Below, piece by piece: positions 1-5,648 of a stretch of 5,648 bases of DNA. How positions within the stretch are numbered: position 1 is the stretch's first letter; every line of letters starts with the position of its first letter. The stretch spans positions 1 to 5,648 of the IMG/VR virus record IMGVR_UViG_3300031963_004653, one strand, 5' to 3'. This DNA comes from a virus. The position numbers were made by a program, and so were the translations under genes. The notes under the pieces were generated by a model. That model saw nothing but the letters and a program-made list of their open reading frames with translations. It made no database searches and was not told the DNA's origin.

Positions 1-2
1 GT

Positions 3-509
3 CCTCAGTACATTATTGATGACAACTACTTAGAGAAAAGAAGTACTAATGGGCACATGGGGCAAAGAGCTGTAGAGAAGTTTTTAGGTATAGAATTTAC
101 AGACCCTGATACTTCATATGATATAAAAAAGAATATCCCTGATTTATTACCTGCAGGATTACATATTGGAGTAAAGACGCATAGAGTAGCTAATCCTCCA
201 ATGCTTGATTTTATACCGGATCAAGTATATGAGAAGCTTGATCCTGAAAAACAAAAGAAAGCTCGTTATCCTCAGATTATTGTAACAAAGGACAATAACT
301 GTGAAAAGACCTTTTATATACTTGGTGTTTATGCTCCTAAAGTTCTTTGGCATCAAGACTATGTAGATAAAGGTCTGATATATGATGATAAACTTTTAGA
401 GAAGGGAACTAAGATTCCTTTTATTGGTGTACATAAACGTATACCATTTAAAAACAAGGAAGAACTAGTTTCTATTATAGGTCCTACATGGACTTCTACT
501 GTAAGGTGA
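3..509 (+). CDS. Hypothetical protein, 5'-partial (gene probably starts upstream of the window)
   Basis: The frame of the listed 57..509 ORF stays open back to nt 3 (PQYIIDDNYLEKRSTNGH precedes the listed Met), so ATG 57 is probably internal. Stop is TGA 507-509. It is on the same strand as, and packed against, the downstream genes. I recognise no family by eye. A weak nuclease-like pattern (E in AVEKFL, D in SYDIKK, IGVKT) is not convincing. Confidence 0.6.
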   Translation, partial: PQYIIDDNYLEKRSTNGHMGQRAVEKFLGIEFTDPDTSYDIKKNIPDLLPAGLHIGVKTHRVANPPMLDFIPDQVYEKLDPEKQKKARYPQIIVTKDNNCEKTFYILGVYAPKVLWHQDYVDKGLIYDDKLLEKGTKIPFIGVHKRIPFKNKEELVSIIGPTWTSTVR

Positions 510-589
510 CGAAACTGGCAGACGTGCCTCCCTGTCTCGGAGGTGGATAGGGTTTCTTATCCTTGGAGGTTCAAATCCTCCCCTTACAG
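500..589 (+). tRNA. Class II (long variable arm) tRNA with anticodon loop CTGTCTC, nominal anticodon GUC (Asp); isotype unresolved
   Basis: Hand-folded cloverleaf. Acceptor 500-506 TGTAAGG pairs with 582-588 CCTTACA (7 Watson-Crick pairs). U8 is T507. D stem 509-511 ACG / 523-525 CGT, with an 11-nt D loop AAACTGGCAGA containing GG. Anticodon stem 527-531 CCTCC / 539-543 GGAGG, with 7-nt loop 532-538 C-T-GTC-T-C. Variable arm 544-564 is 21 nt, with stem 545-551 / 556-562 (one G.T pair) and loop GTTT. T stem 565-569 GGAGG / 577-581 CCTCC, with T loop TTCAAAT. Discriminator is G589. No CCA is encoded (590-592 is CAA). Confidence 0.75.
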
Positions 590-598
590 CAAAAATAC

Positions 599-672
599 CG
601 CGGGGTGGTGTAACGGTAGCACACTGGGCTCATAACCCAGGAATCCTAGTTCAACTCTAGGCTCCGCAACCA
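599..672 (+). tRNA. Initiator tRNA-fMet (anticodon CAU) with genomically encoded 3' CCA
   Basis: Acceptor 599-605 CGCGGGG pairs with 662-668 CTCCGCA, giving the bacterial-initiator C1.A72 mismatch. D stem 608-611 / 619-622. Anticodon stem 624-628 CTGGG / 636-640 CCCAG has three consecutive G:C pairs next to the loop. Loop 629-635 is CTCATAA, with anticodon CAT at 631-633. T arm is 645-649 CCTAG, TTCAACT, 657-661 CTAGG. A73 is nt 669 and CCA is 670-672. The 5' CGCGGGGTGG, GGGCTCATAACCC and CGCAACCA segments match E. coli tRNA-fMet as I remember it. Confidence 0.92.
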
Positions 673-677
673 CATTA

Positions 678-685
678 AATTAATT
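678..685. promoter_or_regulatory. Palindromic AATTAATT at -11..-4 of the ATG at 689 (candidate SD-independent initiation or operator element)
   Basis: The same octamer occurs at the same offset upstream of the portal ATG. I found only these two copies in the window by eye. Confidence 0.25.
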
Positions 686-688
686 CTT

Positions 689-907
689 ATGGAAAACAAA
701 GACTATGCCCTTTACAACTATGTGTTTCACTACAATGCTCATAATAAAAACTGGGCAGCTATTCCTAGAGAACTTTATAATGACTATTGGAGTGACTCTA
801 CTAAACCTGGTATTCTAAGAAGTAAGTCTATTGATACTTTGATAGAAATCTTACACAAAACAGGTGGAGACAAAAAGAAAATAAGCAAGCTAGTTGGAGA
901 AAAATAA
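689..907 (+). CDS. Small hypothetical protein (72 aa); by position a candidate TerL partner or small-terminase-like factor, function not established
   Basis: ATG 689 lies 16 nt after the tRNA CCA and is preceded by an AT-rich leader with AATTAATT at -11..-4. TAA stop is at 905-907. It overlaps the TerL ORF by 14 nt. The basic C-terminal half (SKSIDTLIEILHKTGGDKKKISKLVGEK) could be helical and DNA-binding. No family recognised. Confidence 0.55.
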   Translation: MENKDYALYNYVFHYNAHNKNWAAIPRELYNDYWSDSTKPGILRSKSIDTLIEILHKTGGDKKKISKLVGEK

Positions 908-3101
908 ACCATATATAGAAGTACCAACCTATGAAAATGGGCAGTGGGATCTAACTACTTTTTACTCAAGAGAAGAGTTCAGAGACTATTTGGTTAAGTT
1001 ATTTAAAGAGCCTGGTCAATATGGTTTTGATGAAAGCAGTCAGATATTTAATGCTGAAGCTAGAAAATACCAACAACAAGGTTTTTACTGCCCAGCCCCT
1101 GTAAAAACTAAAGACTTTATTAATTACTGGGATGACCAGAAAATGAAGTGTAAGTCAGGCATTATTGTAAAAAATAACGGTAATGCATGGTATATCAGTC
1201 GGGATTATTACATGTGGCTAAACTTTCTTCCTATCTATGATAAAGAAGAAAAACGTTTTGACTTTGCAAAAGTCAGAGATGCTCAGTATCATATGGCTTT
1301 GTATGAACAACTAGCCGAGCTACACTATAAACACTCCGCTATTTTAAAGAAACGTCAGATAGCCTCATCGTATTTCCATGCAGCTAAGTTGATCAACATG
1401 TTTTGGTTTGAAAGCGGTGCCGTTCTTAAGATGGGAGCAAGTCTTAAAGATTATATTTCAGAGAAAGGTACTTGGCGTATGCTTACTGAATACCGTACAT
1501 TTCTAAACGAGCATACTGCTTGGTACAGACCATCTGATCCAGATAAAGTATTTTCCTGGCAGCAGCGTATTAAGGTTCGTATTAGTGGACGAGATACTTA
1601 CAAGGGTAATAAATCTATTATTACTGGAACCTCTTTTGAAAAAGACCCAACAAATGGTGTCGGTGGTCCGTGTACTTACTTCTTTCACGAGGAGGCTGGT
1701 ATTGCTCCAAAGATGGATCAGACCTATGAGTATATGAGACCAGCCATGCAGAGTGGTATGATTACTACAGGTATGTTTATTGCTGCAGGCTCAGTGGGTG
1801 ATTTAGAAGCCTGTGAACCTTTGAAGCTAATGGTACTTCAACCAGAAGCTAATGATATCTATGCAGTAGATTCAAATCTTATAGACAAAGAAGGAACTAT
1901 AGGAAAGACTGGATTATTTATTCCTGAGCAGTGGAGCATGCCACCATTTATAGATCAGTATGGTAACTCTAAAGTAGAAGAAGCTCTTGCCGCAATAGTT
2001 GAAGAGAGGATAAGGTGGAAGAGAGATCTTACTCCTGAGCAGTATCAGTTAAGGATATCACAGAAACCAACAAACATAGAGGAAGCTTTTGCCACAAGAA
2101 AAGAATCGGTATTTCCTCCTCACCTTGTATCCAAACAGATTCAACGTATTCAGGATAAAGAATACTCAGTAGAATACTTAGATCTTTCTAGAAACGCAGA
2201 AGGTAAGATTATAGATAAGCCTTCAAGGAAGATTCCAATCATGGAGTTTCCTATATCTAAAAAGACAGAAGACAAAGAAGGAGTTATTTGTGTGTATGAA
2301 AGACCTGTAAAAGATCCTACGTTTGGGATGTACTATGCCGCTGTTGACCCTGTAGGAGAAGGTAAGACTACAACTTCTGAATCACTTTGTGCCATCTATA
2401 TCTACAAAAACCCGGTGGAAGTTATAAAAGATGAGGGCAACGGAAAGGTTACTAACACTATTGAGCGGGATAAGATTGTAGCCTCTTGGTGTGGCAGGTT
2501 TGATGACCTGAACAAGACGCATGAACGTCTGGAGCTAATGATTGAGTGGTACAACGCCTGGACCGTAGTGGAAAACAACGTAGCCTTGTTTATTCAGTAC
2601 ATGATTAGTAAGAAGAAACAGCGTTACCTGGTACCAAAGGATATGATCCTGTTCCTAAAAGACATCGGGGCTAACCGGAACGTATTCCAAGAATACGGGT
2701 GGAAGAACGTGGGTACACTTTTTAAGGGCACGATCTTGTCTTACGGGATAGAGTTTCTAAAAGAGGAACTTGACCATGAAACCAAAGCTGACGGAGAGAT
2801 TGTAAAGACCTTCTACGGAGTAGAGCGTATTCCTGATATCATGCTTCTAAAAGAGATGCAGGCTTACCAGGACGGAATAAACGTAGACCGGCTGGTAGCT
2901 TTTTGCTCCTTGGTTGCGTTTGCTAAGGTCCAACAATCTAACCGTGGGTTGGCTAAACGTGTAGAGGTTACAGAACAAAAGTTGGATAACTCCCAGAAAT
3001 TTAGTAAATTAAATTGGAGCCCCTTTAGACATTTAGGTGGCTCTAAAGGTGCTAGTTCTGGTATGAAAGCTCCCAGAAACCCCTTTAAAAATATAAGATG
3101 A
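894..3101 (+). CDS. terL: Terminase large subunit (ATPase plus RNase H-like nuclease); start codon uncertain (TTG)
   Basis: 735-aa ORF whose motif order and spacing match T4 gp17-type TerL. Adenine-binding-like VRDAQYH comes first. RQ of the Walker A region follows (LKKRQIASS, nt 1344-1370). Walker B-like TYFFHEE is at nt 1674-1694 and a motif III-like AAGS lies about 30 aa later. Nuclease acidic motifs are AAVDPVGEG (GAC 2346-2348), TVVENN (GAA 2571-2573) and INVDRLVAF (GAC 2886-2888). It sits immediately upstream of a portal-sized gene. Confidence 0.9.
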   Translation: MEKNKPYIEVPTYENGQWDLTTFYSREEFRDYLVKLFKEPGQYGFDESSQIFNAEARKYQQQGFYCPAPVKTKDFINYWDDQKMKCKSGIIVKNNGNAWYISRDYYMWLNFLPIYDKEEKRFDFAKVRDAQYHMALYEQLAELHYKHSAILKKRQIASSYFHAAKLINMFWFESGAVLKMGASLKDYISEKGTWRMLTEYRTFLNEHTAWYRPSDPDKVFSWQQRIKVRISGRDTYKGNKSIITGTSFEKDPTNGVGGPCTYFFHEEAGIAPKMDQTYEYMRPAMQSGMITTGMFIAAGSVGDLEACEPLKLMVLQPEANDIYAVDSNLIDKEGTIGKTGLFIPEQWSMPPFIDQYGNSKVEEALAAIVEERIRWKRDLTPEQYQLRISQKPTNIEEAFATRKESVFPPHLVSKQIQRIQDKEYSVEYLDLSRNAEGKIIDKPSRKIPIMEFPISKKTEDKEGVICVYERPVKDPTFGMYYAAVDPVGEGKTTTSESLCAIYIYKNPVEVIKDEGNGKVTNTIERDKIVASWCGRFDDLNKTHERLELMIEWYNAWTVVENNVALFIQYMISKKKQRYLVPKDMILFLKDIGANRNVFQEYGWKNVGTLFKGTILSYGIEFLKEELDHETKADGEIVKTFYGVERIPDIMLLKEMQAYQDGINVDRLVAFCSLVAFAKVQQSNRGLAKRVEVTEQKLDNSQKFSKLNWSPFRHLGGSKGASSGMKAPRNPFKNIR

Positions 3102-3190
3102 TCAGTTATAGCATACTTCCTGAACAAATAGTGTTTCAATCTACCAATACGTATGGGGTAGAAATAGTCTATAAATACGTAACTAATTAA
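3098..3190 (+). CDS. Possible 30-codon mini-ORF translationally coupled to TerL (MISYSILPEQIVFQSTNTYGVEIVYKYVTN)
   Basis: Its ATG 3098-3100 overlaps the TerL TGA 3099-3101 (ATGA arrangement). TAA at 3188-3190 lies 5 nt before the portal ATG, so the ORF fills almost the whole 94-nt spacer. It is too short for the supplied track. There is no homology evidence. Confidence 0.25.
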   Translation: MISYSILPEQIVFQSTNTYGVEIVYKYVTN

Positions 3191-3192
3191 TT
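3185..3192. promoter_or_regulatory. Palindromic AATTAATT at -11..-4 of the portal ATG at 3196
   Basis: Second copy of the octamer seen at 678-685, with the same 3-nt gap to the ATG. No Shine-Dalgarno-like purine tract is present at either start. Confidence 0.25.
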
Positions 3193-3195
3193 ATC

Positions 3196-5648
3196 ATGCA
3201 GATATATAATGCTCTAGATCTAAAGGCTGGTAAGAAGGCCGAATATAACAAGATGGGTACCCTTACCCAGCCTATCCAGTTTTTGTCTCAGAAAGAAAAA
3301 GATGAAGAATGGAGGGCGTGGAACTTAGATTGGCTAGAATTTCAGGGAATGAAGCAGCTTAGGCGTAATGCCCGTAGGCTGATGAAAAACTACAAGCTTG
3401 CAAAAGGTATTATAGACAAGTCAGATTATATTGTAGAAGAGGATAATGAGATGGCAGATTTGATAGATACTCTTACTAAAGAGGATGTATCAGCTTTAGA
3501 ATTAAAGTTTTATCCTATTATTCCTAATGTAGTTAATGTTCTTTGCAACGAGTTTTCTAAAAGAAGTTCTCGTATAATGTTTAGAGCAGTAGATGATATT
3601 TCTTATAATGAGATGTTAGAGGCCAAACGTCAAATGCTGGAAGATGTTTTGTTACAACAGGCTCAGATGAAGATGATGACTAAGATGATGGCTCAAGGAT
3701 TGGAGTTTGATTCAGAAGAAGCTCAGCAGATGATGGCTCCAGAAAATCTAAAAAGTCTTCCAGAAATTGAGGATTTCTTTAAAAAAGATTACCGTTCATT
3801 AGTTGAAGAATGGGCTTCACATCAAATGAGTGTAGATGAAGAACGCTTTAAAATGCAAGAACTAGAAGAGCGTGCTTTTAAAGATATGCTGATTACAGAT
3901 CGTGAGTTTTGGCATTTTAAAATGAACGAAGATGATTATGAAGTAGAGCTTTGGAATCCACTCCTTACCTTTTATCATAAGTCTCCAGATGTACGCTATA
4001 TCAGCCAGGGTAACTGGGTTGGTAAAATGGACATGATGAGCGTATCAGACGTTATAGACAAGTACGGCTGGATGATGAATCAAGAACAATTAGAGGCTTT
4101 AGAAGCTATCTATCCAGTGCGTTCTGCTGGTTATGCAGTACAAGGTTATCAAAATGATGGAACATATTACGATCCAACTCGTTCACATGAGTGGAACACT
4201 CAGATGCCATCCTTGGCTTATAGACAATTTACTTCTGTTTATGACACTCAGTTTGGTACAGGTGATATAGTAGAGTGGATATTATCTGACTCAGAAGACA
4301 CTGTTGACTTTGGTAAAAGTCATTTACTAAGAGTTTCTACTATTTATTGGAAGTCTCAACGTAAGGTTGGGCATCTTACTAAAATCACAGATGAAGGTGA
4401 GATTATACAAGATATCGTATCTGAAGACTTTAAAGTAACTGATAAACCACTTTATAATACAAGTTTATATAAACAAAAATCCAAAGACAACTTAATCTTT
4501 GGTGAGCATATTGACTGGATCTGGATTAATGAAACCTGGGGTGGGGTTAAGATTGGACCTAACCGTCCGGCTTTCTGGGGTCAGAATAATCCTGGAGGTA
4601 TTAATCCTATTTATTTAGGATTAAATGGTGGTAAACCAGGTAAACTTCCTTTCCAGTTTAAAGGAGATGCAACTCTTTATGGCTGTAAACTACCGGTGGA
4701 AGGTTCTGTATTTGGTGACAGGAACACCCGCAGTATTTCACTGGTTGACCTGATGAAGCCATACCAGATAGGTTATAATATCGTGAATAACCAGATAGCT
4801 GACATCCTTGTGGATGAGCTAGGCACAGTTATCATGCTGGACCAGAATGCTTTGCCTCGTCACTCTCTTGGAGAAGACTGGGGTAAAAATAATCTGGCCA
4901 AAGCCTATGTGGCTATGAAGAACTTTCAGATGCTGCCTTTGGATACTTCTATTACTAATACAGAAAATGCTTTAAACTTTCAGCATTATCAGGTACTTAA
5001 CCTAGAGCAGACCAACCGTTTGTTATCTAGGATTAATCTGGCAAGTTATTTTAAGAATCAGGCATTTGAAGTAATAGGTCTTAACCCTCAGCGTATGGGT
5101 CAGCCTATAGCTCAACAACAAACAGCTACTGGAATAGAGCAAGCTATGACAGCTTCATATGCTCAAACAGAACAATACTTTATACAGCACAGTGATAATT
5201 TAATGCCAAGAGTTCACCAAATGAGAACTGACTTGGCTCAATACTATCATTCAAAGAAACCTAGCTTACGTCTTCAATATATTACTGGAGCGGATGAAAA
5301 AATAAACTTTGAAATAAATGGAACTGATCTGTTACTACGAGATCTAAATATATTTTGTACTACAAAAACAAACTCTCGTTCTATTATGGAACAGCTTAAA
5401 CAGCTGGCTCTTAACAACAATACAACAGGAGCTTCAATATATGATCTTGGAAATGTAATTAAGTCAGAGTCTATAGCTGAACTTACTGGTGTTCTTAAAG
5501 CTGCAGAAGAAAAGAGCATGGCTCAGAAGCAGCAAGAACAGCAAATGCAACAGCAGATGCAACAAGAAATGCTTGCTAGTCAAGAACGTCAGAAGGCTAT
5601 GGATCTTGAGTTTAGGGCAGAACAAGCTCAGTTAGATCGTCAGAATCA
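3196..5648 (+). CDS. Portal protein, 3'-partial (open to the window end)
   Basis: Hand translation from ATG 3196 (in-frame TAA at 3184-3186 upstream) gives 817 codons without a stop. It begins MQIYNALDLKAGKKAEYNKMGTLTQPIQFLSQKEKDEEWRAWNLDWLEFQGMKQLRRNARRLMKNYKLAKGIID. Later stretches include FYPIIPNVVNVLCNEFSKR, LITDREFWHF, WIWINETWGGVKIG, SLVDLMKPYQIGYNIVNNQIADILVDELGTVIMLDQNALP and LNPQRMGQ. It is over 800 aa and directly follows TerL, the canonical portal position. The supplied track omits it only because no stop codon falls inside the window. Confidence 0.8.
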   Translation, partial: MQIYNALDLKAGKKAEYNKMGTLTQPIQFLSQKEKDEEWRAWNLDWLEFQGMKQLRRNARRLMKNYKLAKGIIDKSDYIVEEDNEMADLIDTLTKEDVSALELKFYPIIPNVVNVLCNEFSKRSSRIMFRAVDDISYNEMLEAKRQMLEDVLLQQAQMKMMTKMMAQGLEFDSEEAQQMMAPENLKSLPEIEDFFKKDYRSLVEEWASHQMSVDEERFKMQELEERAFKDMLITDREFWHFKMNEDDYEVELWNPLLTFYHKSPDVRYISQGNWVGKMDMMSVSDVIDKYGWMMNQEQLEALEAIYPVRSAGYAVQGYQNDGTYYDPTRSHEWNTQMPSLAYRQFTSVYDTQFGTGDIVEWILSDSEDTVDFGKSHLLRVSTIYWKSQRKVGHLTKITDEGEIIQDIVSEDFKVTDKPLYNTSLYKQKSKDNLIFGEHIDWIWINETWGGVKIGPNRPAFWGQNNPGGINPIYLGLNGGKPGKLPFQFKGDATLYGCKLPVEGSVFGDRNTRSISLVDLMKPYQIGYNIVNNQIADILVDELGTVIMLDQNALPRHSLGEDWGKNNLAKAYVAMKNFQMLPLDTSITNTENALNFQHYQVLNLEQTNRLLSRINLASYFKNQAFEVIGLNPQRMGQPIAQQQTATGIEQAMTASYAQTEQYFIQHSDNLMPRVHQMRTDLAQYYHSKKPSLRLQYITGADEKINFEINGTDLLLRDLNIFCTTKTNSRSIMEQLKQLALNNNTTGASIYDLGNVIKSESIAELTGVLKAAEEKSMAQKQQEQQMQQQMQQEMLASQERQKAMDLEFRAEQAQLDRQN

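Follow-up and report, generated by a model that had tools for sequence, protein, structure and literature searches.

A class II tRNA-like gene with an aspartate anticodon and U37 in a phage genome belongs to an RNA family of Bacteroidota and their phages

Transfer RNAs (tRNAs) of class II, with a long variable arm, are restricted in bacteria and phages to leucine (Leu), serine (Ser), tyrosine (Tyr) and selenocysteine (Sec), and position 37 of tRNAs is almost universally a purine. Some special-purpose tRNAs are kept from normal elongation, such as tRNA-Sec and the staphylococcal cell-wall tRNA-Gly. The nematode nev-tRNAs are class II tRNAs with anticodons other than those of Leu and Ser; they accept Leu and can decode in vitro (Hamashima et al. 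2012, PMC3333845). Allo-tRNAs have an 8/4 or 9/3 acceptor/T-stem geometry and Ser identity, and suppressor or regulatory functions have been suggested for them (Mukai et al. 2017, PMC5389517). In phages, tRNAs can evade host tRNases through changes in the anticodon loop (van den Berg et al. 2023, PMC10264068), and T5 tRNA-Lys is reported to counter the tRNA-targeting defence PARIS (PMC11464382). In the present study, we analysed a stretch of virus DNA of 5,648 nucleotides (nt) (IMG/VR record IMGVR_UViG_3300031963_004653, positions 1 to 5,648; hereafter the window), which carries a 90-nt class II tRNA-like gene with U37 and the aspartate (Asp) anticodon GUC. The results showed that, beside the normal tRNA-Asp, Bacteroidota and their phages keep a tRNA of class II shape in which an Asp anticodon is combined with U37, and whose arm can grow into a domain of up to 100 nt.

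The features of the RNA are listed in Table 1. A first-pass annotation, made from the letters of the window, had described a clean class II cloverleaf at 500-589, and this description was borne out by direct reading, by ARAGORN, by Rfam and by the unconstrained minimum free energy fold, which is the cloverleaf itself. ARAGORN called tRNA-Asp(gtc) at 500-590, and the Rfam tRNA model (RF00005) scored 41.8 bits against a gathering score of 29 (E 1.6e-6). Both programs placed the loop CUGUCUC in the same register, which confirmed the GUC anticodon with U37. The RNA has the generic cloverleaf features, namely a 7-bp acceptor stem, U8, G18 G19, a UUCRANY T loop and a 7-nt anticodon loop, and the acceptor/T-stem geometry is 7/5 both here and in its family. 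The body had been called Ser/Leu-type; the class II part of this description stood, while the generic Ser/Leu part did not, as the D arm is specifically like that of tRNA-Leu. Alternative registers, with U35 as the U-turn base (anticodon CUC or UCU) or with loops of 8 or 9 nt, were rejected because pair 31:39 covaries (C-G 135, A-U 6), and no alternative anticodon helix was conserved across the family cores. In a separate Logan assembly of SRR11430613 the RNA was 100% identical. It is genuine, and is neither a sequencing error nor a one-off chimera.

To find viral family members, IMG/VR was scanned with a degenerate 23-nt D-arm pattern that is neutral to the anticodon, followed by a matching T arm and acceptor strand. 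The D-arm pattern also retrieves ordinary tRNA-Leu genes (74-85 nt, A73), and G73 was used as the filter that parted the viral family from them; all class II matches excluded in this way were ordinary tRNA-Leu. The scan gave 63 distinct viral members of 90-171 nt, mostly 141-161 nt. The window copy was the shortest family member found, and the extra length of the others lies wholly in the variable region. The position of the RNA upstream of TerL is kept throughout one phage lineage. ARAGORN found a tRNA-Asp(gtc) of 95-96 nt at the same place in ten related loci, and 144-nt members sit at the identical site in L006, L007, L012 and L016, whose TerL is 91% identical to that of the window, indicating that the plain hairpin of the window RNA is a reduced variable domain. 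Among loci L001-L080, the slot just upstream of TerL holds Leu(TAG), Leu(CAG), Cys(GCA), Met(CAT) or no tRNA, depending on the relative, and the long GUC RNA in 20 of the 80, so that it behaves as a variable tRNA cargo site.

Nine phage tRNA arrays (L096, L138, L151, L152, L166, L173-L175, L189) contain the long RNA together with a canonical class I tRNA-Asp, which is 73-75 nt long and has the loop CUGUCAC, G1-C72 and G73. The phage copies lie 5-13 nt from other tRNAs, and the long RNA is often found 5 nt downstream of a tRNA-Ser. Two phage members carry the loop CUGUUUC, that is the asparagine (Asn) anticodon GUU, with the frame otherwise unchanged; from the bases concerned, this switch would mirror the pair of aspartyl- and asparaginyl-tRNA synthetases (AspRS and AsnRS). 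Both the family and the co-resident phage tRNA-Asp genes encode G73-C74 without the rest of CCA. Conservation of C74 was considered as a special feature and rejected, as the adjoining ordinary phage tRNAs likewise encode N73-C74 without CA. No conserved protein partner was found in the phage loci, which hold lineage-specific structural genes and small open reading frames (ORFs) with no assigned function.

We next determined where the family occurs in cellular genomes. A family-specific pattern, which imposed G34, U35, C36, U37 and C38 and left G73 free, was run on a collection of species-representative genomes and matched at least 120 loci. All cellular matches, among the matches listed, were Bacteroidota chromosomes, from Pedobacter, Chitinophaga, Cyclobacterium, Algoriphagus, Spirosoma, Saprospiraceae, Fulvivirga, Persicobacter and Aquirufa; Bacteroidota is also the expected host phylum for crAss-like phages. 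At least 130 distinct bacterial copies of 107-195 nt were obtained, and the whole family spans 90-195 nt. The bacterial copies stand alone outside tRNA operons, as 1-5 tandem copies. The DNA 40-70 nt upstream of them is enriched in a -7 box of the Bacteroidota type (TAnnTTTG) and hairpin/T-run terminators follow shortly downstream, and they therefore look like independent transcription units whose products would need both 5' and 3' processing. Tandem arrangements take several forms: Pedobacter and relatives (L242, L246, L249, L256, L273, L295, L298, L306) have short (107-112 nt) and long (140-145 nt) paralogues side by side, and Persicobacter diffluens (L221) has five 123-nt copies with a period of 172 nt. 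The isolated phage chimera that had been pictured at first was not found; the window RNA is instead a minimal member of a family of Bacteroidota chromosomes.

Covariation was examined in 141 distinct family cores, in which the extraction had imposed pairing of the acceptor stem and had left the D, anticodon and T stems free. As a result, 98% of the stem cells were paired, double-sided changes were seen in 16 of the 20 pairs, and none of 500 shuffles reached the observed pairing. As judged from these alignments, the covariation is decisive support for a real tRNA fold. The shuffle z-score of the window RNA is only -2.1, and therefore the case for a real RNA rests on comparison and not on energy. 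This z-score, together with promoter scans of the window that gave nothing above chance and an upstream 150-amino-acid (aa) ORF that overlaps the RNA gene by 10 nt, could be taken as signs of a pseudogene, of an error in assembly or sequencing, or of a fold that arose by chance. Such an origin is effectively refuted by the comparative data, and we give it next to no credence: compensatory changes are seen in all stems among about 190 distinct homologues, whose loop and discriminator are invariant, a second assembly is identical, and the site upstream of TerL is kept in a whole lineage.

At single positions, the loop and the acceptor end proved to be nearly fixed. Pair 1:72 is U-A in 139 of the 141 cores and A-U in the other 2, never G-C, and U1 is found in 61/63 viral and 130/130 bacterial members. 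G2-C71 is present in all 141 cores and in 63/63 viral members. The viral pattern did not impose the anticodon loop, and there G34 and U35 were each found in 63/63 members, C36 in 61/63 and C38 in 61/63. U37 was found in 62/63 viral members; in the bacterial set, where the pattern imposed the bases from G34 to C38, U37 and C38 stand in 130/130. G73 was found in 63/63 viral members, for which it had served as the filter, and in 130/130 bacterial members, for which it had not been imposed. The counts for U37, together with the identical Logan assembly, also disposed of a possible miscall at 532-538. The first-pass annotation had further looked to homologues for covarying stems and a conserved CUGUCUC; the stems do covary and positions 34-38 are invariant or nearly so, whereas the motif is not wholly fixed, as positions 32 and 33 vary.

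We then compared the family with ordinary tRNAs. An elongator loop combines U33 with a purine at 37; the window RNA has U33 but U37. In the family, U33 is present in 55/63 viral and 118/130 bacterial members (87-91%), and a purine at 37 in 1/63 and 0/130, compared with 98% for U33 and 99% for purine-37 in a control set of 362 distinct ordinary tRNAs that lie in the same viral loci. At position 32 the family has C or U, and the variants that lack U33 mostly have a purine at 33. In the subclade of the window (TerL at least 90% identical), positions 32-33 read CU, UA, UG, CA or CG, and no core site other than position 33 has three states. At pair 51:63, G-C or C-G occurs in 0/193 family members vs 25/25 co-resident tRNA-Asp and tRNA-Glu; the pair is A-U or U-A in 175/193, and here the family resembles tRNA-Asn. 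The hallmarks of the family are U1-A72, G2-C71, a Leu-like D arm, the loop YNGUCUC, a class II arm or domain and G73-C74, and the window RNA has all of them.

These loop features bear on one rival explanation. U33 is dispensable and the purine at 37 is missing, and both matter mainly on the ribosome, which would suit an uncharged tRNA mimic, decoy or regulator that shows the GUCUC loop and G73 to a tRNA-Asp-binding protein and titrates or senses it outside translation. The target might be an anticodon nuclease or toxin, a modification enzyme, AspRS or a regulator, with the big variable domain as a second binding platform. The five dinucleotides at 32/33 among phages with TerL at least 90% identical and the canonical tRNA-Asp alongside would agree with such a role, as would the conserved small hairpin of the long forms (bulged A, U(U/A)GA loop), which looks like a site for protein or tertiary contacts; phage tRNAs that counter tRNA-targeting defences are on record (PMC10264068; PMC11464382). 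However, the conserved G73, C74, 7-bp acceptor stem and canonical T and D loops exceed what the display of a loop needs, and the switch from GUC to GUU in two phages implies that the meaning of the anticodon matters. In addition, the window version dropped the variable domain yet kept everything else, and 1-5 copies in the bacteria themselves would be odd for a pure anti-defence decoy. We consider a mimic unlikely.

To assess the amino-acid identity of the RNA, its bases were set against the published determinants. Asp identity has five strong determinants, G73, G34, U35, C36 and C38, and in bacteria the anticodon weighs most among them; G2-C71 contributes as a minor determinant, while the strictly conserved G1-C72 has a part in placing the 3' end in E. 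coli AspRS (PMC9976931). Even a minimal tRNA-Asp that lacks the D and T arms can be charged, provided that it retains G73 and the anticodon (PMC9976931). For Leu, A73 is essential and G73 is an antideterminant of the leucyl enzyme (LeuRS), while Ser identity lies mainly in the long arm and the tertiary structure, and bacterial tRNA-Ser always has G1-C72 and G2-C71 (PMC9976931). The window RNA has all five strong Asp determinants, and among about 190 distinct homologues these vary little or not at all; the earlier listing of AspRS determinants, which also included G2:C71, was thereby upheld. Going by these bases, the family agrees with the Asp determinant set at every point but pair 1:72, lacks the discriminator required for Leu and is ambiguous with respect to Ser. 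Codon reading does not depend on C38, and the invariance of this base is therefore the most specific pointer to AspRS. We lean slightly towards the view that the RNA is charged with aspartate by AspRS. Among the three readings offered at first, an Asp acceptor in a class II shape fits the pattern of conservation best.

The second of these readings was a mistranslator, in which the seryl enzyme (SerRS), or LeuRS, would charge the RNA by its shape and G73 and so place Ser (or Leu) at GAY codons, in analogy to nev-tRNAs. Compared with tRNA-Ser, the long arm, G73 and G2-C71 are present, G1-C72 is absent, the D arm is of Leu type, and the orientation of the arm is unreadable from sequence. A change from A73 to G73 can turn Leu into Ser identity in some contexts, Ser identity depends mainly on the long arm (PMC9976931), and nev-tRNAs provide a precedent (PMC3333845). 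On the other hand, the A73 that is essential for LeuRS is never present and G73 acts against this enzyme; the G1-C72 of bacterial tRNA-Ser is replaced by U1-A72; and E. coli SerRS reads the tertiary structure peculiar to tRNA-Ser (PMC9976931). The arm ranges from 18 to about 100 nt although its size is a major Ser element, enzymes blind to the anticodon would leave the invariance of G34, U35, C36 and especially C38 unexplained, and misreading of Asp as Ser from the chromosomes of a whole phylum would be costly. The missing A73 and G1-C72 and the invariant loop bases thus weaken this reading, which stays a minority possibility and in our judgement an improbable one.

Taken together, we propose that the RNA is a specialised tRNA charged by AspRS, a second and orthogonal Asp-type tRNA rather than a routine decoder of GAY codons; on the pattern of conservation, we hold this proposal to be evenly poised between right and wrong. 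The family would be chromosomal in Bacteroidota and have been picked up by phages, and the phage of the window would carry a stripped-down version with a plain hairpin. The window RNA would be functional: the usual enzymes of tRNA maturation would release it from a longer transcript, and its CCA end would then be completed. Host AspRS, which tolerates drastic changes of the body, would charge it with Asp through the fixed G34, U35, C36, C38 and G73. Routine decoding of GAY codons would be left to the coexisting canonical class I tRNA-Asp, and the ribosome would make poor use of the long RNA. The class II body, U1-A72, the pyrimidine at 37, the relaxed 32/33 and the A-U pair at 51:63 are expected contact points of modification enzymes, nucleases, EF-Tu and the decoding centre, and deviations at points contacted by this other machinery would argue for a second, orthogonal Asp-type tRNA. 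Its role would be either that of a spare, which survives attacks or modifications aimed at the tRNA-Asp loop, or that of a carrier that supplies Asp (or Asn) to a process outside the ribosome.

As a spare Asp decoder, the RNA may be shielded from queuine insertion, from modification at position 37 and from anticodon nucleases, and by analogy the hypervariability of 32/33 may fit an arms race; the odd loops of other phage Asp tRNAs (L149, L098, L192) and the published view that altered loops let phage tRNAs escape tRNases (PMC10264068) would fit as well. The loop is not specific to phages, which speaks against a spare decoder that serves as a phage escape. The third of the original readings, an RNA that escapes or decoys a host nuclease, shared this fate in part: it gained from the 32/33 hypervariability and from odd loops in other phage Asp tRNAs, and lost from the fact that the same loop is the bacterial norm.

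As for the carrier, U1-A72 is the pair that amidotransferases recognise in indirect pathways (PMC9976931). A ribosome-excluded carrier would be loaded with Asp by AspRS and converted to Asn-RNA by GatCAB via U1-A72, and would serve as a tRNA-like cofactor for regulated synthesis of Asn (or of other products derived from Asp), borrowed by phages; we rate this version as quite improbable. In it, U37, the relaxed 32/33, the A-U pair at 51:63 and the bulky domain may bar EF-Tu and the ribosome. In 75 of the 120 bacterial loci listed (L195-L314), a conserved, divergent regulator of the Lrp/AsnC family is encoded about 165 nt upstream, on the strand opposite to the RNA, and sufB and sufC come after it. 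The regulator has the domains PF01037/PF13412, and its best NCBIfam match is AsnC, with 161.6 bits against a cut-off of 227 (next family 74 bits). In E. coli, asnC is divergently transcribed from asnA, and by analogy the AsnC-like neighbour may be consistent with a carrier in Asn synthesis. Its place beside the RNA may reflect a functional linkage or merely inherited synteny.

Several points weigh against the proposal of a specialised Asp-charged tRNA. Position 10 is not conserved in the family (A, G or U), and the G1-C72 of bacterial tRNA-Asp is replaced by U1-A72. A class I tRNA-Asp has a variable region of 4-5 nt, compared with 21 nt in the window RNA and up to about 100 nt in its relatives; AspRS approaches the tRNA from the side of the variable arm, as in the yeast complex, and a long arm or a 100-nt domain might clash with it. 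By analogy with some systems, a Leu-type body with G73 may become a substrate of SerRS. The invariance from G34 to C38 may equally reflect decoding or the binding of another protein. The EF-Tu argument from pair 51:63 draws on the literature on thermodynamic compensation. Finally, in phages the RNA takes up slots that are elsewhere filled by ordinary tRNAs, which suggests a use as a component of translation.

The variable arm, with a range of 18 to about 100 nt, is usually a structured domain of 60-100 nt. Constrained folding gave a closing stem, a covarying stem of 2-3 bp, a conserved internal loop (5' GAUAAAC / 3' GCUAAC; phage variant CUGAUAAAG / CCUAAAG) and an inner stem; the long forms have in addition a junction from which a variable hairpin and a small conserved one, G-GG-U(U/A)GA-CC-A(bulge)-C, arise. 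All these elements are missing from the window RNA, and the core should therefore be able to function without the domain. The short Pedobacter-type form (107-112 nt) is without the GGGUUGACCAC hairpin. A pairing of the GAC in this conserved apical hairpin (GGGUUGACCAC) with the GUC anticodon was also considered; neither side varies, and the motif is missing from short forms including that of the window. A hammerhead or other ribozyme in the long domains was considered, as CUGAUAAAG resembles CUGAUGA, and was rejected, as the catalytic G is absent and Rfam finds nothing. Kinship with Y RNA/YrlA through the UUGACC motif was likewise rejected: the motif lacks a complementary strand, Rfam gave no match, and Ro/TROVE was not found among the neighbours.

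Some phage loci showed further unusual RNAs. The class I tRNA-Asp of L149 (74 nt) has the loop UUGUCUA, with U37, and encodes CCA. L098:3663-3738 and L192:607-682 are class I Asp-like tRNAs with an 8-nt loop, CAAGUCAA, and no U33, and they adjoin family members with A1-U72. These abnormal loops suggest unusual selection on Asp anticodon loops in these phages. At the edges of large arrays with the long GUC RNA, tmRNAs were found (L095, L101:1813-2171, L138, L173, L185, L189), which gives a near-complete kit of translation RNAs. On L143, a 298-kb jumbo-phage contig (IMG/VR 3300002835_000001), a GOLLD RNA (Rfam 316 bits) at L143:1007-1411 lies about 0.8 kb downstream of the 151-nt member L143:77-227. 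Two more odd genes look class II-like: a 98-nt 'tRNA-Pro(agg)' call at L132:9734-9831 has a Leu-like D arm and a long arm, and a relative in L105 (about 8079, minus strand) has extra sequence between the D arm and the CUUGUCUCG segment.

Table 1 Features of the window RNA and its neighbours (positions in the window)
Feature	Position	Strand	Remarks
Whole RNA, class II tRNA-like gene, tRNA positions 1-73	500..589	+	90 nt; ARAGORN, Rfam tRNA, family comparison
Acceptor stem, 5' strand UGUAAGG	500..506	+	Pairs with 582-588, 7/7 Watson-Crick; U1 and G2 are family hallmarks
U8 (507), G9, Leu-type D arm, G26	507..526	+	D stem ACG/CGU (509-511/523-525), 3 bp
D loop AAACUGGCAGA	within 507..526	+	11 nt, holds G18 G19
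Anticodon arm, stem CCUCC/GGAGG (527-531/539-543)	527..543	+	7-nt loop C32 U33 G34 U35 C36 U37 C38 at 532-538
Variable region: U44, hairpin, UU	544..564	+	21 nt; 7-bp hairpin GGAUAGG/CUUAUCC (545-551/556-562), loop GUUU
T arm GGAGG-UUCAAAU-CCUCC	565..581	+	Pair 51:63 is A-U, like the family generally, unlike canonical tRNA-Asp (G-C)
Acceptor 3' strand CCUUACA, G73 (589), encoded C74 (590)	582..590	+	Remaining CCA not encoded; sequence runs on as CAAAAA
ORF, 150 aa, no assigned function	57-509		TGA stop at 507-509, tRNA positions 8-10
tRNA(CAT), initiator hallmarks	599-672	+	C1xA72 mismatch, CUGGG/CCCAG anticodon stem, CCA encoded
ORF, 72 aa	689-907		Between tRNA(CAT) and TerL
TerL	894-3101		PHROG 6681
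Portal gene	3187 to window end		PHROG 6547, runs off end

The window uses the standard genetic code. Recoding of a stop codon, suspected from the ORF-free stretch 3101-5274, was rejected, as frame +1 is open from about 3187 to the end of the window (the portal gene). The tRNA(CAT) starts 9 nt past the long RNA, and the two are probably co-transcribed; three consecutive G-C pairs close its anticodon stem, a hallmark of initiator tRNA-fMet. The 150-aa and 72-aa ORFs had no match in Pfam, PHROG or NCBIfam, and about 50-60 related phage loci keep both of them next to the RNA. The TerL of the window is about 25% identical to the terminases of crAss-like and Flavobacterium/Cellulophaga phages, and it has hundreds of relatives at 77-93% identity in IMG/VR. 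A search for a longer contig of the same phage met no record with the exact TerL, and a 1.4-kb Logan contig was all that was recovered. A terminator-like site at 530-552 in a consensus scan was an artefact, formed by the 3' half of the anticodon arm and the variable hairpin, followed by UUUCUU.

Rfam 15 holds no family for this RNA, and permissive scans with single long forms as queries likewise matched nothing in it; the generic Rfam tRNA model and ARAGORN both detect the shortest forms only. GenBank phages (50,697 records) gave no match to megablast of the window or blastn of two long forms. A literature search, whose coverage left out most subscription journals, found nev-tRNAs, allo-tRNAs and nuclease-evading phage tRNAs and no description of the family. 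The family is large and apparently undescribed, a tRNA-derived RNA that unites in an unprecedented way the determinants of Asp and U37 with a class II body and a variable domain that can expand, and standard annotation misses such genes. If the RNA is aspartylated, it provides a natural case of a class II body accepted by a synthetase of class IIb, and a second, orthogonal Asp-tRNA is defined, and its purpose (defence-proof spare, non-ribosomal Asp/Asn carrier or regulator) becomes a new question in the biology of Bacteroidota and crAss-like phages. If it is serylated, it would be a natural mistranslator across a phylum. Since the arm tolerates large insertions, the RNA is also a natural scaffold for tRNA engineering.

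The family can be set against each of the known systems. Its likeness to tRNA-Sec and the cell-wall tRNA-Gly, as functional speculation, lies in being an extra isoacceptor-like tRNA beside the normal one, deviant at sites read by EF-Tu or the ribosome; those RNAs have dedicated partners (SelB, FemX), whereas none was identified here. With the nuclease-evading phage tRNAs it shares a phage-encoded gene, a loop altered beside the anticodon and fast-changing flanks among close relatives, but those are ordinary tRNAs with point changes, while here the whole body differs and the same loop is normal in host chromosomes; we know of no Asp-directed nuclease of Bacteroidota. Allo-tRNAs also have long arms and unexpected anticodons and occur in bacteria, phages and metagenomes, but the window RNA has the ordinary 7/5 geometry. 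Canonical tRNA-Asp, found in the same phages, shares GUC, C32, U33 (in the window RNA), C38, G73, G2-C71, a normal T loop and the encoding of G73-C74, whereas the family differs in its class II body, U1-A72, U37, free 32/33 and A-U pair at 51:63. From tRNA-Leu, which is probably the evolutionary source of its body, the family has a near-identical D arm (GUGRYGAAAYUGGCARAC), the 3-bp D stem, G18 G19 and the long variable arm; it differs by G73 in place of A73, a non-Leu anticodon, U1-A72 and an arm that is often 60-100 nt long with several helices. The nev-tRNAs are likewise class II RNAs derived from tRNA-Leu, with anticodons of class I amino acids and conserved in one clade. However, they are eukaryotic, keep the Leu determinants and have an anticodon that the synthetase ignores, whereas the family has lost the Leu discriminator and holds the loop bases read by AspRS invariant.

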